Of a stretch of DNA of 63,081 bases, positions 5,197 through 21,966 are shown in pieces (within the stretch, counting starts at the first letter, position 1; each line of letters starts with the position of its first letter). The notes beneath the pieces were generated by a model. That model was not told the origin of the DNA. It was given only the letters and a program-made list of their open reading frames with translations, and made no database searches. Both the position numbers and the translations under genes were made by a program. Origin of the DNA: a virus; IMG/VR virus record IMGVR_UViG_3300010373_000008, positions 1 to 63,081 of that record; one strand, 5' to 3'.

Positions 5197-5204
5197 AATA
5201 GTTC

Positions 5205-5579
5205 TCAGTCTTTTAGAGGCGCGCGCGCCAGTTTGTAGGATGTTGGTACATATACAGGTTTAACAGGAGCTACGATCACTGGTGGATTTTTAATCTTGAT
5301 CCTCGGTTTCATTTTAGAATCTGATTTTAGGTTAGGTATTGGATCGTATTCTGGAATGGACGCACCTACTTCTGATCTAGGATACTCACGTTCGTAGGTA
5401 TAGTCATGCTGTTTCCAGTTATTGGATACCCAAATATTGAGAAGTACCTGTCCCTCCCTTAGCTTCTTTACAACAGCATCCATGATCTTGGAACTAGATC
5501 TCTTCTTGATCCAAACAAACCCGAAAGAATGCTTTAGATTCTTGTCACGAACTTTGTACACTGCAATTGTATTCTCCAT
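5205..5579 (-). CDS. Hypothetical protein
   Basis: ORF 5205..5618. The internal ATG at 5579 avoids overlapping the ATP-grasp gene. Confidence 0.55.
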   Translation of the reverse strand: MENTIAVYKVRDKNLKHSFGFVWIKKRSSSKIMDAVVKKLREGQVLLNIWVSNNWKQHDYTYEREYPRSEVGASIPEYDPIPNLKSDSKMKPRIKIKNPPVIVAPVKPVYVPTSYKLARAPLKD

Positions 5580-5586
5580 TATTTCC

Positions 5587-6399: not shown

Positions 6400-6818
6400 T
6401 TCTCTACTGCCTGTTTGATGATGACATACATATGCCTTACCATATTATCACTGTTAGGGTTCATGTAGTACGGAGAGACGTGAGCTTTGCATGTATAAAT
6501 ATATCTCTCCATCGGCTTCCCTGATCCGATAATTTTAAATGATCTTTTAGGAACGTGGTCGAATAATAATTCATCAGCAATTCCTCCCTCTTTATCATGA
6601 AGAAATAAGGATCCTATCCCAGGAATACATGACTTAATTATATCCTCAAGCAGTGCATCCTCACTACTATTAATTAGCATATCCCAATTTTTTTTACCAT
6701 CGTTGATAGGAGCAGGAGTCCGTCGGAAACTATGAAGTACATGACCTGCACAAAATCCTGGCACGTCATCACCCTTCATTGACAAATAGTTTCTGGGTCC
6801 TATTTTAAAGGTGGTCAT
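6396..6818 (-). CDS. Hypothetical protein, paralog of 6815..7399
   Basis: Carries PGFCAGHVLHS, compared with PGCCGLRIIHS in the neighbour. ATG at 6818 overlaps the upstream stop (ATGA). Confidence 0.55.
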   Translation of the reverse strand: MTTFKIGPRNYLSMKGDDVPGFCAGHVLHSFRRTPAPINDGKKNWDMLINSSEDALLEDIIKSCIPGIGSLFLHDKEGGIADELLFDHVPKRSFKIIGSGKPMERYIYTCKAHVSPYYMNPNSDNMVRHMYVIIKQAVEK

Positions 6819-7399
6819 GATTCGTACGCTCCCGCAACAGGAAGTCCTAGAGGATCGTTGCCTACCAATGTCTTGGGAACCATAGCCCAAGTGATTACGT
6901 TTCTACCACTATTGTTTGTGGTACAACTTAAGCGTTGAAAGGAATATTTATCGTTCAGGATTAAATTCAGCCACTTAGCAGTGTGGTAAAGAGTTCCTCC
7001 TTTGACATCTGCAAAGATGATTGTCTTGTTGGCATCTACATATAAATTATCAGCTAGTTTCATGTAATAGATAAAATCCTCTATACTAGAATGAAACTCT
7101 AGTGCGTAAGGCGGCACTGGAAGTCTGGGCTTGTCTACTACATAACCCGCACCGTAAGACGAATGTATGATCCTTAATCCGCAACATCCGGGATAAGGTG
7201 AGAACGAGACTTCCACTAATAGATGAGGATCTGTTATTGCTTTAGTGAAATCATCCCCTTTCAGTTTGCGTCGAAATGCTTCTTCAGAGCAAGGAGCGCA
7301 ACCTTTCAGTAGCTCCTTACCGGGTATAGCATTGTATGCATCCCAATCACGAAGTTTGATATAGTGTTTCTGATAAGAGAACATGGAATCACACCCCAT
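6815..7399 (-). CDS. Hypothetical protein, paralog of 6396..6818
   Basis: 194-aa ORF sharing the PG-x-C-[AG]...HS motif. Confidence 0.55.
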   Translation of the reverse strand: MGCDSMFSYQKHYIKLRDWDAYNAIPGKELLKGCAPCSEEAFRRKLKGDDFTKAITDPHLLVEVSFSPYPGCCGLRIIHSSYGAGYVVDKPRLPVPPYALEFHSSIEDFIYYMKLADNLYVDANKTIIFADVKGGTLYHTAKWLNLILNDKYSFQRLSCTTNNSGRNVITWAMVPKTLVGNDPLGLPVAGAYES

Positions 7400-7634
7400 T
7401 CAGTGAATTGTAGAGAGGGATATCAGAGAGTTTAAATCCAATTGGATTCTCTCGAATAATTCGTACCGGCATCTTTACATCAAACACACATTCATTCTTG
7501 AAGTTGTTAACGTCTACGGCAGTGCTGGCTCCTACCTTGACGTAGATCTTATCGTTCTTAACCGTAGTACCATCAGAACGACGATCGTCACGAAGAGCAC
7601 GGAACATGTTACCAATCTTTAGGTCATTAAACAT
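7389..7634 (-). CDS. Hypothetical protein
   Basis: 81-aa ORF in the same-strand array. Confidence 0.5.
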   Translation of the reverse strand: MFNDLKIGNMFRALRDDRRSDGTTVKNDKIYVKVGASTAVDVNNFKNECVFDVKMPVRIIRENPIGFKLSDIPLYNSLNGV

Positions 7635-7645
7635 TTGTAATCTCC

Positions 7646-7954
7646 TTAAAGAACTTCGACGAATTTACGGGTAATCACGACGCCCGTTGTCGAGAAAACC
7701 TGCGCTTCGGTTTCGGACTTATGGTTCTGCCCCGATAGTCTGCCAGCTTCGTATTCATTTACATAAATTACCCTAGGTTCGGGCTTAATTCGATAATTCC
7801 AGGCAGGCCTGTTAAAACTTACAGTACCGTCGTCCTCAACATCTATCCAACGGGACAGAGCGCCAGGAGGAGTTGCCGCCAGGATCTGAATTGTAGCACC
7901 TTCTCCAAAGGCTTGGATGATAGGCAGTAATGCCAAAGCATCTTGACGTTTCAT
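7646..7954 (-). CDS. Hypothetical protein, member of a 3-copy paralog family
   Basis: Shares NYRIKPEPR with 9654..9977. Confidence 0.55.
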   Translation of the reverse strand: MKRQDALALLPIIQAFGEGATIQILAATPPGALSRWIDVEDDGTVSFNRPAWNYRIKPEPRVIYVNEYEAGRLSGQNHKSETEAQVFSTTGVVITRKFVEVL

Positions 7955-8018
7955 TATTGATTCCTGAGGTTGATAGTATAGAAAGGTTCGTATCGAACGA
8001 ATACAGCTAATGGAAGGG

Positions 8019-8318
8019 TCATTCAGGTACCTCTACCATTTTAATGACGCGCCCATCGGAGGGGGCGTAACTCAACGCGCTTTCTTTCATATCGAAGAAA
8101 ACAACGTCTTCATGTTCTCCTTCGGTAACTACTGCCCATTTAACCAAGGGTCCCTGGTTTACTCGATAATCAAAACGCGCCCAATCCCATGAAGGTTCTG
8201 GACCTGCGTCCCGATTCCAGAGAGCGTAGTCAGTATTGCCGTAGCCGCCCCACCATTCAATCTGCTTACCGTCCACAAATGCCTGCATCACTGCGATCTT
8301 TTCTGCTGTAGTTTTCAT
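8019..8318 (-). CDS. Hypothetical protein, member of a 3-copy paralog family
   Basis: Shares AFVDGK-IE with 9654..9977. Confidence 0.55.
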   Translation of the reverse strand: MKTTAEKIAVMQAFVDGKQIEWWGGYGNTDYALWNRDAGPEPSWDWARFDYRVNQGPLVKWAVVTEGEHEDVVFFDMKESALSYAPSDGRVIKMVEVPE

Positions 8319-8636
8319 TTAGATATCCTTGTAGACGGCAAAAGCGTCGTCATACGTAGGTACGTTATCCACTCCTCCCTCAAGTCCCCACAATAGATAC
8401 TTACCGGAAAACATAGCGCGTTTAGCTAACGTACGTCCTGACTTACGATTGAATTGATCTCCTTTAGAGCATCGTACGATTGACAATTTCCATGTCATAT
8501 CACCTGCAATCGCCGCATGTCGACGAGCAAACACCGTAGCATTGGTGTATTCCTTACCTTTCTTGCTGATGTGTGATTCGCGAATCTGGAAGTAAAGTTC
8601 CGGGGTAGTTGTGGATTTGCGGATTGCTTGAGTCAT
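8319..8636 (-). CDS. Hypothetical protein
   Basis: 105-aa ORF. Confidence 0.55.
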   Translation of the reverse strand: MTQAIRKSTTTPELYFQIRESHISKKGKEYTNATVFARRHAAIAGDMTWKLSIVRCSKGDQFNRKSGRTLAKRAMFSGKYLLWGLEGGVDNVPTYDDAFAVYKDI

Positions 8637-8752
8637 GAGTGTTCTCCTTTTATTTTGAGCAATTAGTATGTGACAAAGTTACTACGCACTTACAACAACT
8701 GCATAGCCACGTATCGCGGCTATTTACAGTAGGGATATAATGTAACATGTGA

Positions 8753-9124
8753 TTAACTTCCTTTAAGTAGTGATGCTGCGTATTCAAGGAGATACAGCTT
8801 CGGAGCAAGGAAGATCTTTAAAGCAACTGACGCTTTAGAAGTAGCGAGAACTGACATAACTGCAATAAGGGATACAAGAATAGTTCCTAGTAGCGCCTTA
8901 GGATCTACGTCAAGTTCCCTGAAGCATTCACTTTTGATTTTGTAAATGCCATAGCCTGCACCAATTGCATAAACAACAGTTAAGAAACAAGACTCTATTC
9001 CCTTAACCAAAAGTAGTTGTTGAATAACGTCTGGGGTCTGTTCTTGTAACCAAACCCCTGTCTGAGTAGCTACTTCCATACCTCTGGTAAGAATAGCAGC
9101 TATGGCTTCGTCTTTAGTGCTCAT
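8753..9124 (-). CDS. Membrane protein
   Basis: 123 aa with hydrophobic segments FLTVVYAIGAGYGIY and LLGTILVSLIAVMSVLA. Confidence 0.55.
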   Translation of the reverse strand: MSTKDEAIAAILTRGMEVATQTGVWLQEQTPDVIQQLLLVKGIESCFLTVVYAIGAGYGIYKIKSECFRELDVDPKALLGTILVSLIAVMSVLATSKASVALKIFLAPKLYLLEYAASLLKGS

Positions 9125-9126
9125 GT

Positions 9127-9348
9127 CTATCCCTCAATTTTGATATTTACAGGATCCCAATAGTATCTATCGTCGCAATCGAAAAACTTAGAATGGTATC
9201 TGCCGTACTTAGTCATGCCTAGCTTGTCTGATTTTATGATTATTCCTGCGTTAGGGCTAATGAACAATACTACATACCCATGATTCGTGGATTTGCGAGC
9301 TACAGGGAATACTGTACCTGCTTTCTCTTTCTCGACTTCAGTTAACAT
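9127..9348 (-). CDS. Hypothetical protein
   Basis: 73-aa ORF. Confidence 0.5.
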   Translation of the reverse strand: MLTEVEKEKAGTVFPVARKSTNHGYVVLFISPNAGIIIKSDKLGMTKYGRYHSKFFDCDDRYYWDPVNIKIEG

Positions 9349-9664
9349 CTCTGCTCCATGTTACTTTCTTTACGTTGTATGCTTTAATGACTTTTTCACA
9401 AATATCGCAAGGTTTTGCTAGTCCATGTTTACCATTAGCTCTGATTCTGATTACATGTAGGCTGTGTACTTTACCTCTCTTAGAGCCTTTAATCAACGCG
9501 GATAGTTCCGCATGGATAAAAGGACGGTTTGGATCGGAGGATCTAGCAGCATACATCTTCTGTAGAGGGTGAGTCTTGCTGTAGCTATTATAGCCTGTAG
9601 CTAAGATTCTACCTCTCTTGTCGAATGCTACCGCTATGATATTCTGACGAATGTTAGACATCAT
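9338..9664 (-). CDS. Cytidine/deoxycytidylate-deaminase-fold zinc deaminase
   Basis: HAELSAL and PCDICEKV (the H-A-E ... P-C-x-x-C zinc motif). Confidence 0.6.
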   Translation of the reverse strand: MMSNIRQNIIAVAFDKRGRILATGYNSYSKTHPLQKMYAARSSDPNRPFIHAELSALIKGSKRGKVHSLHVIRIRANGKHGLAKPCDICEKVIKAYNVKKVTWSRDVN

Positions 9665-9977
9665 CCACTGCTACGTAACGTACAGAACGTCCTGGCACAT
9701 TCGCCAGAATTTTATACTTATCGGCCTCGATCTTGGACGTAAAAGCAAGCGGCGGCATTCGATATTGATGTGTAACTACCCAGACCTCCCGTGGTTCAGG
9801 TTTGATGCGATAGTTGGTAGTAGGTTCTGCAAAATCGTGGCGAGTTCGACGCCCTGGATCGTACCATGTCCCGCTAACAGGATCGAACATTTCGATATCC
9901 TTACCATCAACAAAAGCTCTGATAACGGAAAGATTATCTAGAGCTTTCTTCCAATATTCTCTATTGCCATGTGACAT
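9654..9977 (-). CDS. Hypothetical protein, member of a 3-copy paralog family
   Basis: Carries AFVDGKDIE and NYRIKPEPR. Confidence 0.55.
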   Translation of the reverse strand: MSHGNREYWKKALDNLSVIRAFVDGKDIEMFDPVSGTWYDPGRRTRHDFAEPTTNYRIKPEPREVWVVTHQYRMPPLAFTSKIEADKYKILANVPGRSVRYVAVDDV

Positions 9978-10007
9978 TATATTCTCCTGTCTGGAAATTA
10001 GTAGGCG

Positions 10008-10658
10008 TCACGCGAAATGATCGTCATCTACGCTATCACGCTGCGCCCTAGCTGGATCGTTACGTAGCGTAGCTCTATCAAACATAGTCCAGTTGTAGTC
10101 GAGGATGTAATTATGCGAGTTGCCCTCCAGATTGTACTTATTAGGAGACACACTGATCTTTATGAAGGTACGCATCACCTGCGCAGTAGCTTCTCCTACA
10201 GCATGAACTACAGAGCTATCAAGCTTCAGTAGATGACGATCGGGGAAGGTCACTATATTACTAGGATCCGCCTGTTCTTCAAACTGTACGAGGGAACTTA
10301 CATGATCCTCCTCTACTACGAACAATCCTTTGTTGAATAGGGTAGGGATGCAATCGTACCACACATAGTTGATATCTGAGGATAAGAATCCATCAGCGTG
10401 CCATCCCGGGCGATTTGGAGTTACACCCCCTCCCACGAACATGCGCTTGGCTGTAACATACACGTAGTTGTCTACAAAGGCGCCTGGGTCATTCTCTCTA
10501 ACCTTCTCTAGCAGGGGGTGTAGAAAGCTAAGCCTCATATCTGTAACCCAGTTATCATCTCCCTTCATACTGACTGGTAGGTATAGATAGTACAAGACTT
10601 CTGAGGGCTTTAGTACAATCTCCCCCAAATCTTCAGGAAGCTTCTGCATAGATATCAT
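10008..10658 (-). CDS. Putative Fe(II)/2-oxoglutarate dioxygenase-like protein
   Basis: PGWHADG (HxD), VVHAVGE (distal His) and an R-x-x-x-x-x-S about 10 aa later. Motif spacing only. Confidence 0.4.
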   Translation of the reverse strand: MISMQKLPEDLGEIVLKPSEVLYYLYLPVSMKGDDNWVTDMRLSFLHPLLEKVRENDPGAFVDNYVYVTAKRMFVGGGVTPNRPGWHADGFLSSDINYVWYDCIPTLFNKGLFVVEEDHVSSLVQFEEQADPSNIVTFPDRHLLKLDSSVVHAVGEATAQVMRTFIKISVSPNKYNLEGNSHNYILDYNWTMFDRATLRNDPARAQRDSVDDDHFA

Positions 10659-10692
10659 AATTTATATCCCATCTCTTCAGCTTTCGACCAAG

Positions 10693-10720
10693 TGGCACCC
10701 CTAGACGGACTCGAACCGCC
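10693..10720 (-). tRNA. tRNA 3' fragment (T-arm, 3' acceptor strand and CCA); no intact upstream body
   Basis: The minus strand reads GGCGG-TTCGAGT-CCGTC-TAGGGGT-G-CCA. I could not fold the preceding 50 nt into D and anticodon arms. Confidence 0.5.
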
Positions 10721-10770
10721 AACCAATGGAGTAGAGGGAACTTTTCTATCCAATATACGGTCTAACTAAA

Positions 10771-10847
10771 TGGAACCCCCGCCGAGAATCGAACTCGGAG
10801 TCTCAAGCTTAGAAGGCAAGCGTTTTATCCAATTAAACTACGAGGGC
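10771..10847 (-). tRNA. tRNA-Arg (anticodon UCU), CCA encoded
   Basis: 77-nt cloverleaf: GCCCTCG/CGGGGGT acceptor stem, GTTT/AAAC D stem, anticodon loop CTTCTAA, CCGAG-TTCGATT-CTCGG T arm. The anticodon stem has two U-U mismatches. Confidence 0.65.
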
Positions 10848-10851
10848 ATTT

Positions 10852-11196
10852 ATGAAAACATGTTCAACATGTCGCATAGAAAAGCAAGATACAGAATTTT
10901 ACAACAAAGGCAAAGAAAATAGAACAAACAGTTCGTGCAAGTCGTGTTTTAATGCCTACTGCATAGAACGATGGAAACAACGGAAAATTAAAGTTATTAA
11001 GCAGTTTGGGAACAAATGTGCAGATTGCTCTGTTTCCCACCATCCTAACGTCTACGAATTTCATCACTTAAATCCAGAAACAAAAGACTTTTCATGGGAT
11101 AAAATCCGTCTATTCTCAGAAGAACGCATGCAAAAAGAACTAGCAAAGTGTATTCTGTTATGTGCAAATTGTCATCGTTTACGTCATGTTAAATAG
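10852..11196 (+). CDS. HNH homing-type endonuclease (opposite strand to its neighbours)
   Basis: Cys-rich CxxC pairs, and YEFHHLNP...LLCANCHRLRH (the H-N-H motif). Confidence 0.75.
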   Translation: MKTCSTCRIEKQDTEFYNKGKENRTNSSCKSCFNAYCIERWKQRKIKVIKQFGNKCADCSVSHHPNVYEFHHLNPETKDFSWDKIRLFSEERMQKELAKCILLCANCHRLRHVK

Positions 11197-11221
11197 CTCT
11201 ATCCAATTGAGCTATAGGGGC
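11196..11221 (-). tRNA. tRNA 5' fragment (5' acceptor strand and D arm) abutting the HNH stop codon
   Basis: The minus strand reads GCCCCTA-TA-GCTC-AATTGGATA-GAGC. GCCCCTA pairs 7/7 (one G-U) with TAGGGGT at 10697..10703. Confidence 0.5.
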
Positions 11222-11240
11222 GTATGTAACTAACTTGATA

Positions 11241-11258
11241 CCCTCTCTTTCGAGAGGG
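11241..11258 (-). terminator. Hairpin downstream of gene 11275..11586 (terminator or processing site)
   Basis: CCCTCTC-tttc-GAGAGGG, a 7-bp stem. The T-run after it is weak. Confidence 0.35.
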
Positions 11259-11274
11259 CATAGGGCTAATTACT

Positions 11275-11586
11275 TCAACATTCAAAAAGTAACTCAGCAG
11301 GGCCGCAGTTTTCATACCTACAGTTAGGATTCAAGCAATAATTTAGTGTCTCACCTGTATCTATGCCTGACTCCTTATCTACCATCCGTTCTTCCACCCT
11401 AGAATGATGTGCACTGGAAGTGACAGTCCCCGGCATTAACGACTTCAAGACCATAGATGTTGTTCTAATAGAATCTAGAGATTCGCCGTCCCTAAGTAAG
11501 AGCAGCGCTTCTCTCCATTTGCCCCATCCATGCAATAAATCTCCCGTAGATCCTTTAGGAAGATAGTGTACTTTATATATCTTCAT
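11275..11586 (-). CDS. Hypothetical protein
   Basis: 103-aa ORF. Confidence 0.5.
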   Translation of the reverse strand: MKIYKVHYLPKGSTGDLLHGWGKWREALLLLRDGESLDSIRTTSMVLKSLMPGTVTSSAHHSRVEERMVDKESGIDTGETLNYCLNPNCRYENCGPAELLFEC

Positions 11587-11597
11587 AACAACCTCAA

Positions 11598-12026
11598 TCA
11601 GCTTAGATCAATGCCAGCGGCTTTTAATTGTTCTACGAATTCAGGCAACAGCCGACTAATCTCAAATTTGTAACTCTCTACGAAGCCTTCGACGCCCATG
11701 AGAAGTCGCGCGACTGCCTGCGCACTGGAGTCGTGTGCATTTTGCAATATACAGATTAACCTAGAATGCTTTTCGGGAGCTAATCCGGCAACCACCAGAC
11801 CTCTCCACGCGGTGCTGACCGTAATTCCTTCTCCCACTTCGTCGTAGGGCATTTCTCTATGCTCAATCTTGATAAATGGAGCGGCCCCACATCCTATGCC
11901 TGAATACTTACAAAGGCCAGTATCTTCATCGATAGATGGCCGCCCGTTAGCAAGTACATGCTTGACGGACGTAAACACCACTTCAAACTCAGACATCTGT
12001 TCCAGATTATCGATCGTAATCATCAC
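11598..12026 (-). CDS. Hypothetical protein, weakly similar to 13875..14252
   Basis: 142 aa. GLCKYSGIGCGAAPF resembles GHCKYRGLNGLKCAAGCV. Confidence 0.55.
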   Translation of the reverse strand: MMITIDNLEQMSEFEVVFTSVKHVLANGRPSIDEDTGLCKYSGIGCGAAPFIKIEHREMPYDEVGEGITVSTAWRGLVVAGLAPEKHSRLICILQNAHDSSAQAVARLLMGVEGFVESYKFEISRLLPEFVEQLKAAGIDLS

Positions 12027-12034
12027 TTAACTCC

Positions 12035-12238
12035 TTATGTAAGGAACCAAAATAGATAAGCACAAGACGCTGCAAACAAAACAGGATCTATAACCGAAAT
12101 GGATTTGTGGGACTTATAATATCCTACGCACATGAAGAACAATATGAAGGATACTACAAAAGAACATGCTACTGCAATCAACGTGAGCATCATTAGTAAT
12201 CCTCCCACGGTAGAAATGTACCTTCTACGTCGTCCCAA
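12035..12238 (-). CDS. Small membrane protein
   Basis: 67 aa with two hydrophobic segments. Confidence 0.45.
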   Translation of the reverse strand: MGRRRRYISTVGGLLMMLTLIAVACSFVVSFILFFMCVGYYKSHKSISVIDPVLFAASCAYLFWFLT

Positions 12239-12717
12239 TCTATATATGGATCGAAATACTCGTCGTCGGAGCAGTCGATCTGGTCATAGTAGAAGTCATC
12301 ATAGTACCTATCATCATCTAGGAGATAAGCAGAATAAGCGTCATCCTCTTCTGTCCAACTAGGACAATTCAATTCTTCCAACAAAGTGATTCTGACGCGT
12401 CTTTCTTGAAGGGTCACAGCAAGAACACTATTGCCGCCGCGCCATTTAGCATGTCGCGTTTTGGAACAGCATTGCCTACTGCACATTGCCCTGTTGTTCA
12501 TCCTCTTTTTAGTAGCTTTATAATCACTCCGTTCAAAAATGCCGTTGTGACGCCACCAATAGAATTCCCCGCCCTGAGGCCGGTGTTTCAGCGTCTTGAT
12601 GAAAACCCTATCAGTATGATGACGTCGAATAGCCCTAATCTTAGTAGGAACAGGGATAAGATCCGGCTCAGCGTCCAGCTCGTCCATGTACCGCTCGAAT
12701 GCATCATCTAAGTTCAT
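12193..12717 (-). CDS. Hypothetical protein with a basic core and an extremely acidic Asp/Tyr-rich C-terminus
   Basis: The C-terminus reads LLDDDRYYDDFYYDQIDCSDDEYFDPYIDWDDVEGTFLPWEDY. Confidence 0.55.
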   Translation of the reverse strand: MNLDDAFERYMDELDAEPDLIPVPTKIRAIRRHHTDRVFIKTLKHRPQGGEFYWWRHNGIFERSDYKATKKRMNNRAMCSRQCCSKTRHAKWRGGNSVLAVTLQERRVRITLLEELNCPSWTEEDDAYSAYLLDDDRYYDDFYYDQIDCSDDEYFDPYIDWDDVEGTFLPWEDY

Positions 12718-13028
12718 CAGGCATACTCCTTAGGATTCCACAGGCAATCTTCCCACGCTACTACCTTATGACCTTCAGGTACGATCGGCTCCAAAGCAGA
12801 CGCTCGACAGAAATATTCCCCCTTAGAAAGTTCTGCACCCTGTAATGAAGCATCTGAGATAAAAGTACAATCGTTGTCATCGCCCAAAATCGATTTATGT
12901 CCGGGGATAGGTAGGCAAGGAGTGCCCTTCGGATAGTTACCATATCCTCCGAAGAATCCCTCCGCGTTTAAGTTAGACTTGTATCTAGCGCGCGCCAGCC
13001 TAACCCTTTGACCTTTGTAGAATTTCAT
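12717..13028 (-). CDS. Hypothetical protein; first gene after the island terminator
   Basis: 103-aa ORF. Repeat R1 lies 12 nt upstream of its ATG. Confidence 0.55.
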   Translation of the reverse strand: MKFYKGQRVRLARARYKSNLNAEGFFGGYGNYPKGTPCLPIPGHKSILGDDNDCTFISDASLQGAELSKGEYFCRASALEPIVPEGHKVVAWEDCLWNPKEYA

Positions 13029-13039
13029 TGGATTATCCC

Positions 13040-13066
13040 ATATCGGGGATGAGAACGATTCTCATT
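13040..13066 (-). promoter_or_regulatory. Repeat R1, copy a: 27-nt element with a 7-bp stem / 3-nt loop hairpin
   Basis: atatcggggATGAGAAcgaTTCTCATt, identical to 15744..15770. It sits just upstream of the leftward gene start at 13028. Confidence 0.45.
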
Positions 13067-13067
13067 A

Positions 13068-13114
13068 GTATCGGCCTACGGCCTGCAATGATGCAGGATC
13101 GGAGATCCGATAAG
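13068..13114 (+). repeat. Repeat R2, copy a: 47-nt multi-hairpin element, perfect inverted partner of 15278..15324
   Basis: Reverse complement checked base by base, 47/47. It contains the hairpins GGCCtacGGCC, CCTGCAatgaTGCAGG and ATCGGAgaTCCGAT. Confidence 0.9.
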
Positions 13115-13119
13115 ACGGC

Positions 13120-13146
13120 AAAAAGCCTCCCCCGTTAAGGGGAGGC
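13120..13146 (-). terminator. Intrinsic terminator ending the GC-rich leftward cassette
   Basis: GCCTCCCC / GGGGAGGC 8-bp stem, followed on the minus strand by TTTTT. Confidence 0.65.
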
Positions 13147-13169
13147 GATATATTAGCCTTAGGCTTGTA

Positions 13170-13298
13170 TTAGCGCTTGATGCTACGGCGCGCTTTGTAG
13201 TGGACCTGAGTGTCGCCTATCCATTCAAACCCGGAGCAACGGAGTTTCAGGCCGGGAAGGATGGCAACCATAGCGGGCTTTACGTAATTGATTCGCAT
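13170..13298 (-). CDS. Small protein (42 aa), translationally coupled
   Basis: Own translation: MRINYVKPAMVAILPGLKLRCSGFEWIGDTQVHYKARRSIKR. Its ATG shares a base with the upstream TGA. Confidence 0.4.
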   Translation of the reverse strand: MRINYVKPAMVAILPGLKLRCSGFEWIGDTQVHYKARRSIKR

Positions 13299-13567
13299 CA
13301 CACACGCTCCATTAGGTTAAAGGTTTTACGCTGGTCAGTTCCTTGTTCCTTTTGTCGATCCACGCTCCTGCGTATAAAATTTCTGAAATAGTCGCGATTA
13401 AGAGCCGTGTCGTTGAAAACGTACGCGCGTGAGTATGGCCCTATGCCGTCCACGTAAACGTAATCAAAACCAGACACGTCCGACTTAACAATTTTACCCA
13501 AAAAGCCCTCGCGGACTATAAAATCATCAGGTCCCATACCGCTTATTACGAACACTTTGGTTGACAT
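13298..13567 (-). CDS. Hypothetical protein (GC-rich cassette)
   Basis: 89-aa ORF. Confidence 0.55.
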   Translation of the reverse strand: MSTKVFVISGMGPDDFIVREGFLGKIVKSDVSGFDYVYVDGIGPYSRAYVFNDTALNRDYFRNFIRRSVDRQKEQGTDQRKTFNLMERV

Positions 13568-13578
13568 ATGAGTATCCC

Positions 13579-13878
13579 TTAAACCTTACAGACTCGCACC
13601 TTGTGCTGTCCGCCGATTGTTTTACCGTTGAATTGGTAGAATTTAGTGCGCCCAGAAGTCGCTACTTCAAAGGGTGACCGGGATTTCACGGCATTACTCG
13701 GGCTGACTGTTCCCCTGAGGGATCTACCCCCCGGCTTTATCAGGCGCTCTTGATTCCGTGCCAGTTCCAGCGCTCGCGCTGACATGTCGGATGCTCGCGA
13801 GATATCCCCGCGAGTATGCTTGCAGCGCGCTACATTCAAACTATGCTCCAGCATAGCAATGGGATCTGGGATTTTCAC
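13579..13878 (-). CDS. Hypothetical protein (GC-rich cassette)
   Basis: 99-aa ORF. Confidence 0.55.
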   Translation of the reverse strand: MKIPDPIAMLEHSLNVARCKHTRGDISRASDMSARALELARNQERLIKPGGRSLRGTVSPSNAVKSRSPFEVATSGRTKFYQFNGKTIGGQHKVRVCKV

Positions 13879-14252
13879 GAATCTAATATCGCGCTGTCGA
13901 GATTGAAACAGACGGCAACGGCCTGCAACATCTCCCTCCAGTAACTTACTACGTAACCGTCATGCACAAGCTGCAAGCGACCAATTAATTCAATGTGGAC
14001 GAGCGGTCGGCTGCTTGACCGTGTTGCGATAATGGACATCAAATGATCCCAGCTTTTACCCTCAAAAAAAGGATCGTATTCGTCATCTGATATAACGCAT
14101 CCAGCCGCGCATTTCAGTCCATTCAGGCCGCGATACTTACAATGACCATTAAAGTCCGTTGACCTAGCCTTCTGAGTCATAAGGTGCCGGGCTACTTGAT
14201 CGAAAACTTGCTGTGGTGTCGCAAGGTGTAAATTAGCAAGCGTGATATGCAT
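13875..14252 (-). CDS. Hypothetical Cys-rich protein (GC-rich cassette)
   Basis: ORF 13875..14342. The ATG at 14252 is preceded by GGGAG, giving MHITLANL... Confidence 0.55.
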   Translation of the reverse strand: MHITLANLHLATPQQVFDQVARHLMTQKARSTDFNGHCKYRGLNGLKCAAGCVISDDEYDPFFEGKSWDHLMSIIATRSSSRPLVHIELIGRLQLVHDGYVVSYWREMLQAVAVCFNLDSAILDS

Positions 14253-14345
14253 ATAAACTCCCGATTTAATCGGATGGTACCCAATTGATACCGCAGTTCC
14301 CCCTCCCAGAGTAATATCTGGGAGGGGAAAGTACGCTAGCAACTA

Positions 14346-15212
14346 TTAGCCGTTAGCAGCAACACGCTCGACCACTCCATCATCCGCAAGGGATTCTTCC
14401 AGAGCCTTGATGGCCTTGTCGGTTGCATCGGGTTCGTCCGCAATCTCAGTCGGATTAGCAGCCAGAGCCGCTTCGCGGAACTTCTCGCACCACGGATCCA
14501 GAGCCTCAAGAAACGCATTGGTCAGAACAGGGTCCGCATGTTTCCACGAATCCATGATAGCGCTCACCATACCCAGAGCGGATTGCTGTTCGTGGGTACC
14601 GGCCTTATAAGCCGCTGCGAACTGTGTACTGACTTCGCGTGCGGTGTCATTGCGTTCCTTAGCGTCGTTGTGGCTCTTGAGTTCGTCCGGTGACATGGCC
14701 TGAATCTTCGCCGATGCAGTAGCTTCCACGACATTCCGGACGGTCATGTTCGGTGCGAGAACAGCGCCCGCCTCGTACGCTGAAATGACATTAGCCCGAT
14801 ACTGATCGATAGTTGTTTGGGCCTTTTTCACCACGCGGTCGAGTTTGAACTTGTCGCCGTAACGCGTTTTGATGACCGTTGCCGCCTTAGTCGGGATCAA
14901 TTCCCGTCCAGCTTCGTCGGTCGTGATCTGATCGAAAGCACCATAACCCGCCTCGGAGAGTGCCCTTGCGATTACTGCCGAGCCGATAGCAGCCTTGATG
15001 CCCGCAAAGACTTCATTAGCCGCTGCTACAGCATCGTCACCTTCATGCTCGCCAACTGCATCGCACACAAGGCCGATTGTTTCCTTCCATGTATTCGAGC
15101 GTCCGTGCACCGCCGTTGCGGTCAACAGGGCATTGCTCAATAGGCCGTAGGCCACGCGGTTGACACCTTCGATCCCCTTCGGGACAAAACTAACCAATTT
15201 CACGTTGCTCAT
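14346..15212 (-). CDS. Hypothetical Ala/Glu-rich protein (GC-rich cassette)
   Basis: ORF 14346..15248. The ATG at 15212 is preceded by GAGGGG, giving MSNVKLVSF... Confidence 0.6.
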   Translation of the reverse strand: MSNVKLVSFVPKGIEGVNRVAYGLLSNALLTATAVHGRSNTWKETIGLVCDAVGEHEGDDAVAAANEVFAGIKAAIGSAVIARALSEAGYGAFDQITTDEAGRELIPTKAATVIKTRYGDKFKLDRVVKKAQTTIDQYRANVISAYEAGAVLAPNMTVRNVVEATASAKIQAMSPDELKSHNDAKERNDTAREVSTQFAAAYKAGTHEQQSALGMVSAIMDSWKHADPVLTNAFLEALDPWCEKFREAALAANPTEIADEPDATDKAIKALEESLADDGVVERVAANG

Positions 15213-15277
15213 TGTATACCCCTCACAATAATCTAGATGGTAGATCAATCTGACGTTCAGACTCTACCGCTATACTC

Positions 15278-15324
15278 CTTATCGGATCTCCGATCCTGCA
15301 TCATTGCAGGCCGTAGGCCGATAC
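15278..15324 (-). repeat. Repeat R2, copy b (inverted partner of 13068..13114)
   Basis: 47/47 reverse-complement identity. Confidence 0.9.
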
Positions 15325-15342
15325 GAAGCATAACGCTAATGT

Positions 15343-15531
15343 CTAGAGCGGAGTTACAGGTAATACTTCCAAGGGTCCATACCATCCCCCGTCCTCTGGC
15401 AAGCGCATCTGCCTGTACATGTGTATAGCTTCTCGCTGCGCCTTGCTGACGATTCGGGACGTTTCTTCGACGTCGCGCGTTACTATCGCGAATCTGTGTC
15501 CAGTTTCTAGCTGGAAGATAGTAGCTTTCAC
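15343..15531 (-). CDS. Small early protein (62 aa from GTG 15531)
   Basis: Same frame as ORF 15343..15579. GAGGAA lies 6 nt before the GTG, which overlaps the upstream TGA (GTGA). Confidence 0.45.
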   Translation of the reverse strand: MKATIFQLETGHRFAIVTRDVEETSRIVSKAQREAIHMYRQMRLPEDGGWYGPLEVLPVTPL

Positions 15532-15683
15532 CGAAATTTCCTCGCAAGGTAGAATGCCCATTCCACGGCAATGATGCACCTTGACGCTGCGATTTTCCCT
15601 TCTATCGCTTCGCGTGTCCGCATCTTGATTACCGCGTCCGCGAGTCGCCGGACTTGTTTGATCGCTTGTCTACGTGTCATCAT
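15528..15683 (-). CDS. Small early protein (51 aa); first ORF of the leftward arm
   Basis: Own translation: MMTRRQAIKQVRRLADAVIKMRTREAIEGKIAASRCIIAVEWAFYLARKFR. AAGGGA lies 7 nt upstream. Confidence 0.4.
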   Translation of the reverse strand: MMTRRQAIKQVRRLADAVIKMRTREAIEGKIAASRCIIAVEWAFYLARKFR

Positions 15684-15689
15684 ATCAAT

Positions 15690-15716
15690 TTCCCTTATCG
15701 CCGCTACGCGTCTGCA
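15690..15716 (-). repeat. Repeat R3, left arm of a 27-bp inverted repeat (26/27 with 16317..16343)
   Basis: ttcccttatcgccgctacgcgtctgca. A shorter third copy lies at 15774..15795. Confidence 0.85.
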
Positions 15717-15743
15717 AAGTTTGGTCGGGTTCTATATCCCCGT

Positions 15744-15770
15744 ATATCGGGGATGAGAACGATTCTCATT
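15744..15770 (-). promoter_or_regulatory. Repeat R1, copy b (27/27 identical to 13040..13066)
   Basis: Same hairpin, ATGAGAA-cga-TTCTCAT. It lies 60 nt upstream of the leftward ATG at 15683. Confidence 0.45.
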
Positions 15771-15805
15771 CGCATATCACCGCTACGCGGCTGCACAGTA
15801 AAGCG

Positions 15806-15825
15806 TTGCAGGCCGTAGGCCGATA
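15806..15825 (-). repeat. Partial third copy of R2 (20 nt)
   Basis: ttgcaggccgtaggccgata equals 15305..15324. Confidence 0.8.
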
Positions 15826-16315
15826 AACGCATCTAGATAGCGCACCCAATAGCCGGCATGCGCTAGCGAAAGCGTCTCTACTCACCACTAGATTGACAAG
15901 GAGCACCCGATAGGACCAGTGACCGCAAGCGCCTTGTGGCTCGCGAGATAGTCCGCCCACGGTTGGGCAAGGGACAGTGCAAAGGCGTCTCGCCTAAGCA
16001 TGAGCCACTATACCTACCCCTAACTGAACGTAAGCTGAACGTGCTACCCCGGTTAGCGCCCCTGGAACACCCTCTCCGACCCCCTGCCGATGTAAAGGAA
16101 ACTTGACACAGGCTGTCATCGAGAATGAGAAGCAGTTGCAATTGGACTGTCGATGATGTAGATAGGACTCATTCGCAATTCCCCTGAGCGCAGACCCCCG
16201 GAGTAGCAGCTTGGAAAAAGGGGACCCACTGCGTGGGGTCGGTGGCCCCTATCCTCCAGGGAGCATAAATAAATACAAAACAATAGGGAATTAATTAATA
16301 AGAAGTGCAGGAAAT
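15826..16315 (+). ncRNA. Candidate structured noncoding RNA or control region (ORF-free, GC-rich, many hairpins)
   Basis: Only short antisense-looking ORFs occur here. Hairpins include ATCTAG..(TAGCGCA/TGCGCTA)..CTAGAT at 15831..15893, GTCC-GCCCA-cggt-TGGGC-aa-GGGAC at 15951..15975, and GTGCTA-ccccggt-TAGCGC. Several stems need T-G pairs on the plus strand, so plus is the tentative strand. Confidence 0.3.
16215..16250 (-). terminator. Terminator-like hairpin readable on the minus strand
   Basis: The minus strand reads AGGGGCCACC-GACCCCAC-gca-GTGGGTC-CCC-TTTTT. Confidence 0.3.
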
Positions 16316-16885
16316 ATGCAGCCGCGTAGCGGCGATAAGGGAACTAATGCCCAGGAAATAGATCTAATAAGTATGAATCTAGAAGAAGTAATTAAAAGTT
16401 TGAAGATAAGTACCCCTACTATAACTGAGCCAGAGCCTCTAAGAGCGCCAGCTACAGTAAAGCGTAGGAGAAGTACTCGTAGGGATACGGATGCGCTTAG
16501 AATCGCTAAGACGAGGGCATATGACGTACGTAGATACAGTACAGTAAAGGGGCTGTGGAGACAGCAGAAGAAGTGGCTGAAGCAAAGAGCAGCTAGATAC
16601 AGGGCTAAGGGTAATGAGCTAAAGGCTAAGGGATGTGAGTTAGTCATAACTCTGGAGGAGTGGACTAAGTTGTGGGAATCAGCGGGGCAGGTGTGGTTCC
16701 ACGGAAAGTGGGTACAGGCCCATGAGGCTAGAGGACCTAGGAAAGATAGGGATGTACAGTTAATACGAATAGACGATAACGGTCCTTGGGAGCTTAGTAA
16801 CCTGAAGATCATCTACAACAAGGGTACTATAGCAGATGGAAGAAGAGTTACCGCAGTGCAGGAGCGTAGCGACGATATTGAATAA
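16316..16885 (+). CDS. Arginine/lysine-rich hypothetical protein (possible nucleic-acid binding); first rightward ORF
   Basis: 189 aa. N-terminal half: KRRRSTRRDTDALRIAKTRAYDVRRYSTVKGLWRQQKKWLKQRAARYRAKG. C-terminal part: ITLEEWTKLW...LIRIDDNGPWELSNLKIIY. The start codon is uncertain. Confidence 0.5.
   Translation: MQPRSGDKGTNAQEIDLISMNLEEVIKSLKISTPTITEPEPLRAPATVKRRRSTRRDTDALRIAKTRAYDVRRYSTVKGLWRQQKKWLKQRAARYRAKGNELKAKGCELVITLEEWTKLWESAGQVWFHGKWVQAHEARGPRKDRDVQLIRIDDNGPWELSNLKIIYNKGTIADGRRVTAVQERSDDIE
16317..16343 (+). repeat. Repeat R3, right arm of the 27-bp inverted repeat
   Basis: tgcagccgcgtagcggcgataagggaa. It overlaps the ATG at 16316. Confidence 0.85.
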
Positions 16886-17039
16886 AGATCAGGTGTACTA
16901 CCTTAAGAAAAAGATGCAGGGCTTGGAGCAGGGCGACAAGACCGATAAGATTAAGGAGATTGCCCTTGAGCGTAGGCTTAAGCAGTGGAGAGTCTGGGGG
17001 CTTAAGGAATACCGAGATAAAAATAATTGAAAATAGTTG

Positions 17040-17500
17040 GGGAACTTTTACGACTATTTGGCTATCTAATGTTGTCTAAGTGTTATCAAGACTTAACAGT
17101 CTTTGCATCTAACCATGCAGTCACGGTAAGTGACGATACGTACTCCGTACGTTAATAGGAACGCTGATCTGTCGTTGCTCGGAAGAAAAGCAGATCAACC
17201 TTAGTCTAAGGATAGACATAAAGGAGCTAGTGCAGAGACACTAGCAATATACAATCGGTCCTAGTCCTCTCCGGCCAGAGGGGCTAGGGCCTGGACGTAT
17301 AACCCACTAACCACCCCTTAAGACCGGGGGCGGAGACGATAAACCAATTAAGCGGACATCTTATCAGAGCATTGCTCTTGCATCTAACCATGCAGGAACG
17401 CAGTTCCGATAAGACGATAAGGAGACCTGACTCGGTATCAAGGAGTAGCTTAGATCTGGTGTATTTGGAATTGTTCATATCGAAACGATATCTGATGCAA
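17040..17500 (+). promoter_or_regulatory. Hairpin-dense ORF-poor leader with a duplicated 18-nt hairpin
   Basis: ttgcatctaaccatgcag occurs at 17103..17120 and 17378..17395. A 14-bp hairpin at 17257..17291 needs T-G pairs on the plus strand. Several 5-7-bp hairpins follow, including ACGTACtccGTACGT, GGAACgcaGTTCC and ATATCGaaaCGATAT. Confidence 0.35.
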
Positions 17501-17765
17501 TGGAACGAAGTGAAGTGATAAGAGTTCTGGATAATTGGGTTAGTGGTACTTAACTTGGATAGTGTATCTCATTATCAAAGCATAGCTGTTGTACTGATTA
17601 GATTTAGGTGTATTGCTGTTTAGTGTAGGTGTAAGCTGCTGTCTAATCTCGACAGCTCTGTTTACAGCTAAACGAACAGGATGTCCCTAAGGTCTATGAT
17701 CTTGTTTTATCTGAAGTTACACAGTTCCATGAGTCAAACACATGCAAGCCCGGAGGGCTGATAAG

Positions 17766-19920: not shown

Positions 19921-20302
19921 GCACTGGGCTGAACGCGTTAAGAGGATGTACGAAGAAGGATGTTCTGACGATGAGATCTGTAGAGAGATCCAGATCAGTA
20001 GGAAGGAATTCCTTCGTCGTTCTAAAGATGATCCCATGTTCGGTAAGCTTGTTGAGTACGGACACGTAGCTCGCAAAGCTTGGTACATGAGGATGGGTCG
20101 TAAAGCTATTACAGAAGGAGCTAAGTCTCAGTCGTTTAACTTCTGGCAATCCATCATGAAGAATGATTTCGGATGGGGTGCAGAGAGTACGTCTGACGGC
20201 AAACCTGCTGAAACATTATCTCCCTTAGAATTAGTGGAACGAGTTACAGAACTGCGAAAGAGATTAAAAGAAGCCCCGGAGTTTAGCGATCTTGCACACT
20301 GA
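19781..20302 (+). CDS. terS: Terminase small subunit (HTH type); start uncertain
   Basis: GKPLGRKPKEQPKAEHWAERVKRMYEEGCSDDEICREIQISRKEF. It lies directly upstream of the large subunit. Confidence 0.55.
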   Translation: MQKQSLNSSQSQQDLEAPSSITETPGPKLSKYGKPLGRKPKEQPKAEHWAERVKRMYEEGCSDDEICREIQISRKEFLRRSKDDPMFGKLVEYGHVARKAWYMRMGRKAITEGAKSQSFNFWQSIMKNDFGWGAESTSDGKPAETLSPLELVERVTELRKRLKEAPEFSDLAH

Positions 20303-21185
20303 TGATGACGATTGGGATTTAGTTCCCTCTGTAGATTTAGATATTCCTATCGATGAGGAATTACTTAATCGCGCAGCTAAGATTAAAGTCCGTGCACAGA
20401 ATAAACACATCAGCCCTCACGATGTACTCGAACTACAATCCCTCCTTAAAGAGATGGAAAGGCGTACCGAGATCTCAGGAGTTGATAAGTGGTATGTACC
20501 CGGCACTCCATTCGGCATCGACAAACTTCCTAAACATAAAGCAATCTTCGATTCTACAAAAGACTATAGAGAAGTTTTGATCCTAGGAGGAAACCGTACT
20601 TCCAAGACCACGACAGGATGTTACCTCAGCACAGTAACCGCGACAGGATTATATCCTGATTGGTGGGACGGTGTTGTATATCCTGGACCTGTGAATAACT
20701 ATTCAGTAGGTAAGTCAGCACAGACCGTACTTCAAACTCTACAGGAATGTCTGATGGGTCCGTCTGGTCAATGGGGTACAGGATTAATTCCTAAGCATCT
20801 CATTGAGAAGACTGTCCATAAGTCAGGAGTACCCGGAGCAATCCGTGAAGTACATGTACGTCATGTTCCTTCAGGAGGTATCTCTACAATTACGTTCATG
20901 TCCGCAGACCAGAAGGCTCACGCTTTCTTTGGTCTAAAGGGACATATCATGCATGTAGATGAACCTACCGATGAAGATGTGTACAACGAGATCCTAGTCC
21001 GTACCATGACTACCAACGGTCGTGTAATTCATACCATTACTCCCAAGAAAGGTTTGACTAGAATGCTAGCCAACTTCTTAAGTGACTGTCATCTACTAGC
21101 AGGCACCAAGAAGATTAAAGGTCTCGAACAGGCTAAGGCTTTGATGGACATAGAAGCAGAAGCTAAGAGGCAAGACAGTGAGTGA
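20292..21185 (+). CDS. terL: Terminase large subunit, ATPase half (separate ORF)
   Basis: Walker A LGGNRTSKTT, Walker B GHIMHVDE, and coupling motif HTITP. It ends in TGA TAA. Confidence 0.75.
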   Translation: MHTDDDDWDLVPSVDLDIPIDEELLNRAAKIKVRAQNKHISPHDVLELQSLLKEMERRTEISGVDKWYVPGTPFGIDKLPKHKAIFDSTKDYREVLILGGNRTSKTTTGCYLSTVTATGLYPDWWDGVVYPGPVNNYSVGKSAQTVLQTLQECLMGPSGQWGTGLIPKHLIEKTVHKSGVPGAIREVHVRHVPSGGISTITFMSADQKAHAFFGLKGHIMHVDEPTDEDVYNEILVRTMTTNGRVIHTITPKKGLTRMLANFLSDCHLLAGTKKIKGLEQAKALMDIEAEAKRQDSE

Positions 21186-21966
21186 TAAGGTCGAAGAAGT
21201 AGTAGGCAACGCTGCTAAATACAGTAGAGCTGCTATCTCCATTAGCTGGGCGGATGCTCCTTGGTTGACCGAGGAAGCTAAGCAGCAAGTACGTGAATCC
21301 ACTCCTCCTCATCTACGAGAGACTGTTGAGAATGGTACCTTCGCTATTGGCGATGGTGCTATTTATCCAATTCCTGTAGAAGAGATTACAATTCCTATGA
21401 AGGATACGTTTGATATCCCCAAACATTGGAGATTCATCTACGGAATGGATGTAGGCTGGAATAGAACTGCCGTAGCTTTCTTGGCGCAGAATCCTGAGAC
21501 TGGCGTATGGTACATGTACGATGAACATTACCAAGGTAACCAGCCTCCAGAAGTCCATGCAGCTCGTATCAAAGCCGTAGCAGGTGATTGGATGTCGGGA
21601 GCTATTGATCCTGCGTCTAAGAATCGTTCACAAAGCGACGGTCAGCAGTTATTGGTATCCTATCGTAAGCTGGGACTTAGATTACGAGAAGCCAATAATG
21701 CGGTTGAGTCTGGTATTCAAACTGTTTGGTCCCTGTTAGCAGCAGGCAAACTAAAGATCTTTGCTAACTGCTACAATTTCTTGAATGAATACATTTTGTA
21801 CAGACGAGAAAAGGGTAATGTAGTCAAGGAAAATGACCATCTGATGGACGCACTTCGTTATGGAATTGTTGAACATAGGTATGCTTCGCTTAAACCTAGG
21901 CAAGGGCAGTCTATACCGGGCATTAACGGCCCTCTAATTCAGGTAAAGCGTAGATATGACTATTGA
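21178..21966 (+). CDS. terL: Terminase large subunit, nuclease half (separate ORF in the +1 frame)
   Basis: ISISWADAPWLTEE, GMDVGWNRTAVAF and NDHLMDALRYG. The GTG start is preceded by AAGAGG 7 nt upstream. Confidence 0.75.
   Translation: MSDKVEEVVGNAAKYSRAAISISWADAPWLTEEAKQQVRESTPPHLRETVENGTFAIGDGAIYPIPVEEITIPMKDTFDIPKHWRFIYGMDVGWNRTAVAFLAQNPETGVWYMYDEHYQGNQPPEVHAARIKAVAGDWMSGAIDPASKNRSQSDGQQLLVSYRKLGLRLREANNAVESGIQTVWSLLAAGKLKIFANCYNFLNEYILYRREKGNVVKENDHLMDALRYGIVEHRYASLKPRQGQSIPGINGPLIQVKRRYDY

Follow-up and report, generated by a model that had tools for sequence, protein, structure and literature searches.

The two gene arms of an uncultured phage diverge from a segment of about 0.65 kb that contains no recognizable gene and is enclosed by a 27-bp inverted repeat, and the question raised by this locus is whether the segment encodes a large structured RNA, is a mobile insertion, or controls the arms on its two sides. 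The DNA analyzed, referred to here as the window, comprises positions 1 to 63,081 of the IMG/VR record IMGVR_UViG_3300010373_000008 (63,081 nucleotides), with the repeat arms at 15690–15716 and 16317–16343. We favor, with modest confidence, the interpretation that the segment is a modular intergenic control region between the divergent arms, which would act through short signals in the DNA and in 5′ untranslated regions and not through a folded RNA. This control region possibly also holds a packaging start. A folded RNA gene in the segment was not supported.

The ~63-kb phage genome is a complete, circular assembly (ENA ERZ27256675, contig k141_5289216), and the sequence of the region was identical in a Logan contig from SRR6185512. 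The minus-strand arm (1–15683 and 45766–63081) carries genes for replication (T7-like primase, DnaB-type helicase, family A DNA polymerase, exonuclease, and endonuclease) and nucleotide metabolism (ribonucleotide reductase, thymidylate synthase, and dCMP deaminase), together with an amidoligase/ATP-grasp cluster. The plus-strand arm (16373–45454) encodes lysozyme, terminase, an SU10-like portal, and capsid and tail proteins. The inverted-repeat segment is located exactly at the point where both arms diverge. The gene caller of the source assembly placed no gene between 15213 and 16315, where the open reading frames (ORFs) are short and of low complexity, and the GC content was 0.53 for 15717–16316 and 0.57 for 15826–16260, compared with 0.44–0.45 in the arms. 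These values bear out a preliminary description of the interior, made from the sequence alone, as ORF-free and GC-rich. The GC-rich block in fact extends over 13030–16343, coding DNA included; the stretch 16261–16372 is AT-rich (GC 0.37).

No match was obtained in a DNA similarity search against 50,697 deposited phages, and IMG/VR searches for close relatives with two flanking proteins yielded none. Relatives were recovered only by portal-based and motif-based searches. When portal proteins were compared, Xanthomonas phage DES1 and Stenotrophomonas phage StenR_269 were the nearest phages in culture (35% each). The syntenic divergent-region loci used for comparison were those of DES1 and StenR_269, L002 and L066 from IMG/VR, L069 and L070 from Logan, and the short contigs L071–L077, L081, L084, and L087. 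The closest of these is L069 (58% identity). The divergent intergenic regions of the relatives span 0.75–1.2 kb, except for the short one of DES1 (190 bp), and the homologues of both flanking genes, i.e., the first gene of the right arm and the left-flank gene, are only 19–37% identical in amino acid sequence.

The inverted repeat was present as described (26 of 27 positions) and extended to 32 nt at 91% identity; a third copy (84–89%) was confirmed at 15769–15795. Its 20-nt core occurred 3–4 times, with 0.00 occurrences expected. The two repeat arms proved to be members of a family of at least 13 copies of a 19–23 nt hairpin repeat, hereafter called a cassette, built from TGCA, a variable stem of 4–6 bp that starts with a purine, a short loop, the complementary stem, and GATA(AG). 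Most of the loops are G-N-A closed by a C:G pair (C-GTA-G, C-GGA-G, or C-GCA-G). The strict cassette pattern gave 7 exact matches against 0.01 expected, and a hairpin-aware scan found 12 perfect copies against 0.4 in shuffled sequences, to which the left repeat arm (15716–15696, one mismatch) adds the thirteenth. One additional pattern match (16857–16877) had a weak stem. All copies in the window lie within 13–18 kb and thus cluster no more than about 3 kb from the point of divergence.

Stem sequences vary from copy to copy (GGCC, GGATC, GCCGC, AGAGC, GGAAC, AGCCC, GTCAC, and others) while pairing is kept. In an alignment of 13 cassettes from the window and L069, 98.5% of the stem positions were paired and double changes occurred at all 5 stem pairs, a result reached in 0 of 500 shuffles and compared with 28–57% pairing in slid controls; the copies in this test had partly been chosen for pairing, which weakens it as support for a control region. 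The genome-wide count of TGCA-N11–15-GATA provided an unbiased control. Of its 28 matches, 15 fell within 13–18 kb, where 11 of the 15 had nested stems of at least 4 bp, compared with 0 of the 13 located elsewhere.

The left arm of the repeat (15690–15716, minus strand) is the cassette TGCAGACGCGTAGCGGCGATAAGGGAA with one stem mismatch, and the right arm (16317–16343, plus strand) is the cassette TGCAGCCGCGTAGCGGCGATAAGGGAA. The third copy (15769–15795, minus strand) is the leftward cassette TGCAGCCGCGTAGCGGTGATA, and a rightward hairpin repeat, TGCAGGCCGTAGGCCGATA, occupies 15807–15825 (plus strand), with identical copies at 15305–15323 (plus strand) and 13087–13069 (minus strand). The "27-bp inverted repeat" therefore exists because one cassette copy faces each arm. 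It had been proposed that each copy adjoins the first ORF of its arm, and this held in part. The left copy does supply the sequence AAGGGAA 6 nt ahead of the ATG at 15683, but the 51-aa ORF that starts there (15528–15683, minus strand) was not called by the gene caller and has no homologue. The right copy lies upstream of the first right-arm gene, with its probable start at ATG 16373, and not inside an ORF beginning at 16316.

In L069, 14 cassettes were found, of which the 8 in the minus arm are on the minus strand and the 6 in the plus arm are on the plus strand, so that the orientation switches exactly at the divergence point. Several cassettes end 0–15 nt before start codons (for example, GATAAG-ATG at 17763/17766 of the window and GATACG-ATG at 3366/3363 of L069), and several hairpins overlap ribosome-binding sites or directly abut start codons. 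Where GATAAG abuts ATG, it cannot be a −10 element; the hairpin there is either part of the transcript or acts at the DNA level. Clean presence/absence indels of cassettes were observed inside otherwise alignable DNA of the window and L069. The small hairpin repeats thus behave as indel-prone cassettes. They may function within the transcript or at the edge of the promoter, as a 5′-end hairpin, by insulation or attenuation, or by masking ribosome-binding sites.

Four back-to-back divergent cassette pairs were located at 13065–13114, 15278–15327, 17084–17138, and 17362–17411. The second of these, junction J2 (15278–15327; folding z −2.4 and −4.8 on the plus and minus strands), is a 50-nt, 98% inverted copy of the first, junction J1 (13065–13114), with the cassettes back to back in each. 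Between J1 and J2 lies a 2.2-kb GC-rich (0.51) block with three or four genes on the minus strand, and this block could invert or be exchanged by recombination between the two junctions. This block includes the conserved 300-aa left-flank gene and a PHROG 17693 protein. Beside J1, a strong intrinsic-terminator-like hairpin was observed at 13120–13150 (minus strand), consisting of GCCTCCCC-TTAAC-GGGGAGGC followed by TTTTT.

The preliminary description had also considered the whole unit to be a possible miniature inverted-repeat transposable element (MITE). With its 26/27 terminal inverted repeats and a composition unlike that of the arms, the 654-bp unit resembles such an element, but its flanks (...tatcaa / ctaatg...) contain no target-site duplication, its interior is single-copy in the genome, and its ends belong to a 13-copy family of independent small cassettes. 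Moreover, motif A, the CTGAA repeat, and the palindrome (all described below) are found at the corresponding position in relatives without these repeat arms. We therefore regard a MITE-like insertion of the whole segment as extremely improbable. The individual cassettes share with REP/REPIN sequences and MITEs the short palindromic repeats, often in inverted back-to-back pairs, whose presence varies between relatives. They differ from them in that the stems change between copies with pairing kept, the copies occur only in one 5-kb zone of a phage genome, no RAYT or IS200-type transposase was found among the screened proteins, and target duplications are lacking.

A closer likeness is offered by the "promoter-early stem-loop" elements (PeSLs), the mobile regulatory cassettes of T4-like phages (PMC2839356, PMC4122927). 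Like PeSLs, the cassettes described here are short, repeated intergenic stem-loops that concentrate where the genome is plastic and contains small ORFs of unknown function. In both systems, some copies are joined to a promoter, copies come and go between close relatives, and gene cassettes can be enclosed by copies (compare J1 and J2 around 13115–15277). In contrast, a PeSL comprises a promoter of the sigma-70 consensus and G4/C4 terminator stems, whereas here it is the TGCA and GATAAG flanks that are conserved, with variable stems and loops that are mainly GNA. Sigma-70 signals did not exceed chance here, and the promoter-like box, present on two copies only, is of sigma-E type.

The polarity of the cassettes also bears on the possibility that the region is a bidirectional replication origin, where the hairpin repeats, which always occupy the lagging-strand template in their arm, would provide signals for priming or loading. 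The cumulative GC skew reaches its minimum at ~16 kb, the divergence point of the arms, an AT-rich stretch adjoins the GC-rich repeats, the hairpin orientation in L069 flips exactly at the divergence point, and C-GNA-G triloops form unusually stable DNA mini-hairpins. However, the direction of transcription explains the GC skew and the orientation equally well, neither iterons nor DnaA boxes were found, and the back-to-back pairs of the window display both orientations within one arm. The hairpins that abut start codons or overlap ribosome-binding sites point to gene expression instead. An origin is therefore considered unlikely.

The second line of evidence for a control region is a sigma-E/extracytoplasmic function (ECF)-type promoter-like box, GGAACTA-N16-TCTAA, at 16340–16367 (plus strand). 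Its predicted transcription start lies at about 16372–16374, at the ATG of the first right-arm gene. The published sigma-E consensus is GGAACTT-16 nt-TCAAA (PMC1312014), and the box, read as GGAACnn-16 nt-TCWAA, matches it, including the preferred spacing. The pattern GGAAY-N18-TCWAA has a single match in the 63 kb, at 16340–16367. When the pattern was set to GGAACT-N17/18-TCTAA, 3 sites were found (10737–10765, 16340–16367, and 17041–17069) against 0.07 expected, and 0 of 1000 shuffles reached 3. All three are on the plus strand, each ahead of a plus-strand unit. Among the relatives, GGAA(C/T)-N18-TC(A/T)AA occurs in AT-rich DNA ahead of the first right-arm gene in L002, L066, L069, L070–L077, and DES1, and StenR_269 has a one-base variant, TGAAC-N18-TCTAA, at the equivalent place. 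The resemblance to promoters of the ECF group (RpoE/AlgU) thus covers the −35 element GGAAC(T), the −10 element TC(T/A)AA, often after G, the exact preferred spacing (PMC1312014), and A/T-rich upstream DNA in most relatives.

With its final bases (GATAAGGGAAC), the right repeat arm provides the −35 element at 16340. The same composite of hairpin and box is present in L069 at 6723–6775; these two cassette copies (window 16317 and L069 6723) are the only ones fused to a box. The right arm would accordingly be transcribed from GGAAC(16340)-N18-TCTAA(16367), with the −35 element supplied by the right repeat arm, and the box would be read either by an envelope-stress sigma factor of the host or by an unrecognized phage sigma factor. 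The ancestral promoter position appears to have been around GGGAATTAATT (16286), within the AT-rich stretch 16261–16316, the counterpart of the promoter position used in relatives, and to have decayed in the window.

The first right-arm gene (16373–16885, plus strand; 170 aa) is conserved in all relatives and has only a weak HNH-like PHROG match. Its start is most likely ATG 16373 and not 16316, because the homologues begin with M-x-(x)-E-E-(L/V/I)-I, and the right repeat arm is therefore placed upstream of the gene and not inside it. A 4-codon mini-ORF, ATG CCC AGG AAA TAG (16347–16361), was observed in the spacer that separates the −35 box from the −10 box. Of the sigma-E-like boxes in the genome, the one at 10737–10765 (plus strand; GGAACTTTT...GGTCTAA) is the best. 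It lies next to a tRNA-Arg(TCT) gene (10771–10847, minus strand) and points through this tRNA, antisense to it, toward the only plus-strand gene of the left arm (10852–11196). A perfect sigma-54-type TGGCAC-N5-TTGCA was noted only in L066, in the equivalent intergenic region at about 6770–6790 (minus strand of the locus), and it is absent from the window.

Because the cassette hairpins resemble early promoters of phage N4, a different polymerase was also considered. The hairpin repeats would then be N4-type promoters read by a virion RNA polymerase, represented by a 1882-aa protein. The 5–6 bp stems, 3-nt G-N-A loops, and C:G closing pair are as in N4 early promoters, the hairpins cluster at the presumed early end, and the authors of the StenR_269 study speculated that its 2270-aa protein is a virion RNA polymerase (PMC10747016). 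More generally, both kinds of hairpin have a stem of 5–7 bp and a 3-nt loop with a 5′ G and a 3′ A above a C:G closure, which gives stable DNA mini-hairpins. N4 promoters, however, have the GNA hairpin on the template strand, with position +1 on its 5′ side (PMC4496689), whereas the GNA strand in both the window and L069 is the coding strand, so that N4-type initiation would produce antisense, converging transcripts. Furthermore, the loop varies and the flanks are conserved, the reverse of N4, where loop and stem bases are conserved, and the hairpins of the window abut start codons. No polymerase homologue was detectable, and neither the 1882-aa nor a 1064-aa protein had a PHROG, Pfam, or PDB sequence match. 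The N4-type promoter reading, which we hold to be very unlikely, was rejected on strand orientation. The 1882-aa protein itself (34566–40214, plus strand) belongs to the virion module and has the 2270-aa StenR_269 protein as its counterpart.

The interior of the proposed control region contains further short signals. A conserved module at 15743–15780 consists of a CCCCG-TATAT-CGGGG hairpin and a perfect 17-bp palindrome, ATGAGAA-CGA-TTCTCAT (ATGAGAACGATTCTCAT, 15753–15769), with folding z of about −2.2 on both strands. The palindrome stands between two leftward cassettes, and its second copy (13049–13065) has the same neighbors in the arrangement 13049–13087. Close variants occur one to three times each in L002, L070, L071, L066, L075/76, and L084. 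This palindrome, with leftward cassettes on its flanks, could be an operator site through which a dimeric regulator controls leftward transcription.

The spacer at 15826–16193 (GC 0.57) is mostly lineage-specific, without coding or folding signal, and holds short conserved islands. The island TTGACAAGGAGCA (15893–15905) is common to the window and L070, and CTGAA-N6-CTGAA (16024–16039) is common to the window, L066, L069, and L070; half-sites of a split palindrome are present at 16118–16129 and 16168–16179. The strongest conservation was found in motif A, ACCCCCGG-AG-TAGCAGCTT-N8-GGGGACCC, which is followed by CCC/GGG hairpins (16194–16249, plus strand). Its core, at 16194–16227, is CCCCCGG-N2-GTAGCAGCTT-N8-GGGGACCC. 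The 10-mer GTAGCAGCTT was invariant in 9 aligned lineages, while the proteins of the flanking genes are only 19–37% identical; GGGWCCC is present in most lineages, with A and T about equally frequent at its center. Motif A was also tried as a host-derived element or attachment site and rejected, as the 8 matches obtained among 185,579 reference genomes were all located in unrelated coding sequence and none of them included GGGWCCC. The GC-rich middle may be a spacer with conserved protein-binding islands such as motif A.

The conservation of motif A and the rightward cassette at 15807 raise the question of whether the interior, or a part of it such as motif A with the hairpins that follow it, represents a structured noncoding RNA of plus sense or a long leader with a regulatory role. 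In addition, the region is ORF-free and GC-rich within an AT-richer genome, motif A is conserved far beyond the flanking proteins, and in most lineages it is succeeded by CCC/GGG hairpins whose loops vary. The folding analysis did not agree with such an RNA. The 600-nt interior, previously called hairpin-dense, was no better folded than dinucleotide shuffles (z −1.01 on the plus strand and −1.59 on the minus strand), 120-nt sliding windows across 15800–16320 gave z from −1.1 to +1.7, and motif A itself gave 0.07 and 0.91. The only windows that stood out were those with repeated elements, at 15240–15359 (z −2.4 and −4.8) and 15680–15839 (about −2). The proposed plus-sense bias was not borne out by the folding energies, the minus strand being more stable (−215 versus −193 kcal/mol). 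For the suggested three-way junction at 15831–15893, z was −1.2 (plus) and −0.5 (minus), and the ATCTAG/CTAGAT closure was absent from the minimum-energy fold. The hairpin at 15951–15975, which had been named as another example, gave z of about −2 on both strands and hence no strand bias.

Comparison with known and related sequences led to the same result. No match reached the Rfam gathering score in the window except one tRNA, and at E ≤ 10 the region 15300–16700 gave only chance-level matches (E 2–9). RNAalifold analysis of the motif A island, the best conserved one, yielded −0.14 kcal/mol for 9 lineages, with 4 pairs, 1 of them covarying, and thus no consensus fold. GGGWCCC is a DNA palindrome whose center is A or T about equally often, the interior is mostly unconserved (~70% cannot be aligned even with L069), and the sole promoter-like box is downstream of the segment. 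We consequently judge a large structured or regulatory RNA to be quite unlikely. A single RNA spanning all islands was rejected as unlikely, since in L069 the CTGAA island is separated from motif A by a 131-aa ORF that has hairpin repeats on its flanks. The interior was also rejected as a pseudogene, as neither tblastn with this ORF nor tblastx of 15200–16380 against all relatives produced a match; by tblastx, the rest of the interior has no translated similarity in the relatives.

Conserved islands that are not transcribed would also suit a DNA-level site, and the region may accordingly hold the packaging start (pac) or the physical genome ends in the form of a short terminal repeat, with motif A and the G-rich hairpins as the terminase recognition site. 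This is compatible with a control region, and data on the cultured relative StenR_269 suggest that the middle of the region may contain the packaging start. For this phage, termini near 65916–66050 were reported by PhageTerm with headful pac packaging, or a 135-bp direct repeat by Li's method (PMC10747016). Both these termini and the two ends of the linear record map to the corresponding divergent region of that phage, where a late gene is located at 65461–66009 (minus strand) and the first early gene starts at 273, and this region contains a motif A-like GTAGC...GGGG-TAT-CCCC and a GGGGGTGGGGCCCC hairpin. On the other hand, this evidence is indirect, the StenR_269 calls are ambiguous (pac versus direct terminal repeat) and their coordinate frame is uncertain, the assembly break corresponds to about 58660 of the window, outside this region, and the terminase genes are 4 kb away. 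A packaging site is therefore possible and, in our estimate, rather doubtful.

Of the three explanations offered in the preliminary description, an operator/origin complex for both arms came closest, on account of the promoter-like box, the palindromic operator-like site, and the cassettes that face both arms. Several observations weigh against the interpretation as a control region. Eight of the hairpin copies are not followed by a called gene within the next 100 nt, and the back-to-back pairs face in both directions. The 17-bp palindrome is absent from the closest relative L069, as well as from DES1 and StenR_269, and the interpretation leaves the function of motif A and the high GC content unexplained. 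For the left arm, no sigma-70-type promoter was found, as scans of three intergenic regions for sigma-70 promoters and terminators gave nothing above chance. A minus-strand terminator-like hairpin that overlaps motif A was discarded because it is not conserved in the relatives.

The remaining objections concern the right-arm promoter, for which both the start site and the sigma dependence are predicted from the sequence. The −10 box ends 5 nt before ATG 16373, so the first right-arm mRNA would be leaderless or nearly so, compared with leaders of 20–90 nt in the relatives. No sigma factor or RNA polymerase gene was found when ~50 phage proteins were screened against PHROGs or Pfam. The box could alternatively be read by a divergent phage sigma factor like gp36 of phiEco32 (PMC12276001), a precedent for such a protein escaping recognition. 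In these two respects, and in serving the late/structural arm of a phage, the box differs from sigma-E promoters.

A broader proposal is advanced only tentatively, as one that could well prove wrong. The TGCA-stem-GNA-stem-GATAAG hairpins would be an undescribed class of small, indel-prone phage regulatory cassettes able to carry a promoter, and the StenR_269/DES1 podophage family would drive its lysis/structural arm from sigma-E/ECF-type promoters, through either a hijacked host stress sigma factor or an unrecognized phage sigma factor. Phage intergenic control regions and repeated regulatory cassettes are already known kinds, whereas ECF-type late promoters in this little-known family are a testable prediction. 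If the promoter reading is true, an ECF/sigma-E-type promoter would turn on the late genes in this uncultured phage as well as in its cultured Xanthomonas and Stenotrophomonas relatives, which offers a testable handle on the transcription program of a proposed new phage family. The cassettes would be the second example, after the PeSLs of T4-like phages, of small repeated modules that reshuffle phage early regions, and hairpins with conserved flanks and variable stems could be used to search for a binding protein or nuclease specific to them. For annotation, the locus illustrates that a striking inverted repeat around an ORF-free block can be merely two copies of a dispersed cassette facing two operons.

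A second ORF-free stretch, which follows the sigma-E-like box GGAACTT-N17-TCTAA (17041–17069), was observed nearby, at 17031–17765. A gene-free gap of 0.6–0.9 kb is found at this position in all relatives. Compared with L069, the stretch contains blocks of 72–96% identity, while the adjacent proteins are about 58% identical, and it holds five hairpin cassettes, some of which correspond to indels relative to L069. Its folding exceeded that of shuffled sequences on both strands (z −5.5 and −224 kcal/mol on the plus strand; z −5.2 and −196 kcal/mol on the minus strand), with the plus strand 28 kcal/mol more stable. Substitutions at predicted pairs, scored from two sequences only, kept 33 pairs and broke 37, and the stretch had no Rfam match. 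Should there be a structured RNA or long leader in this genome, 17031–17765 is a better candidate for it than the segment between the repeat arms.

Two features of the gene arms were also noted. The large terminase appears to be split between two plus-strand ORFs (20292–21185 and 21178–21966) that overlap by 8 nt, the first for the N-terminal ATPase (297 aa) and the second for the C-terminal nuclease (262 aa). The split is also present in L069, whereas L002 has a single 543-aa ORF, and it may be genuine or represent a programmed frameshift. In the minus arm, a cluster at 1355–6399 (minus strand) comprises genes for amidoligase, gamma-glutamyl cyclotransferase, COOH-NH2 ligase, and RimK-like ATP-grasp proteins. 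The genes for dCMP deaminase and thymidylate synthase are located elsewhere in this arm, and the same "glutamine synthesis" gene set has been noted in StenR_269. The amidoligase/ATP-grasp cluster may serve to make a metabolite or some modification.

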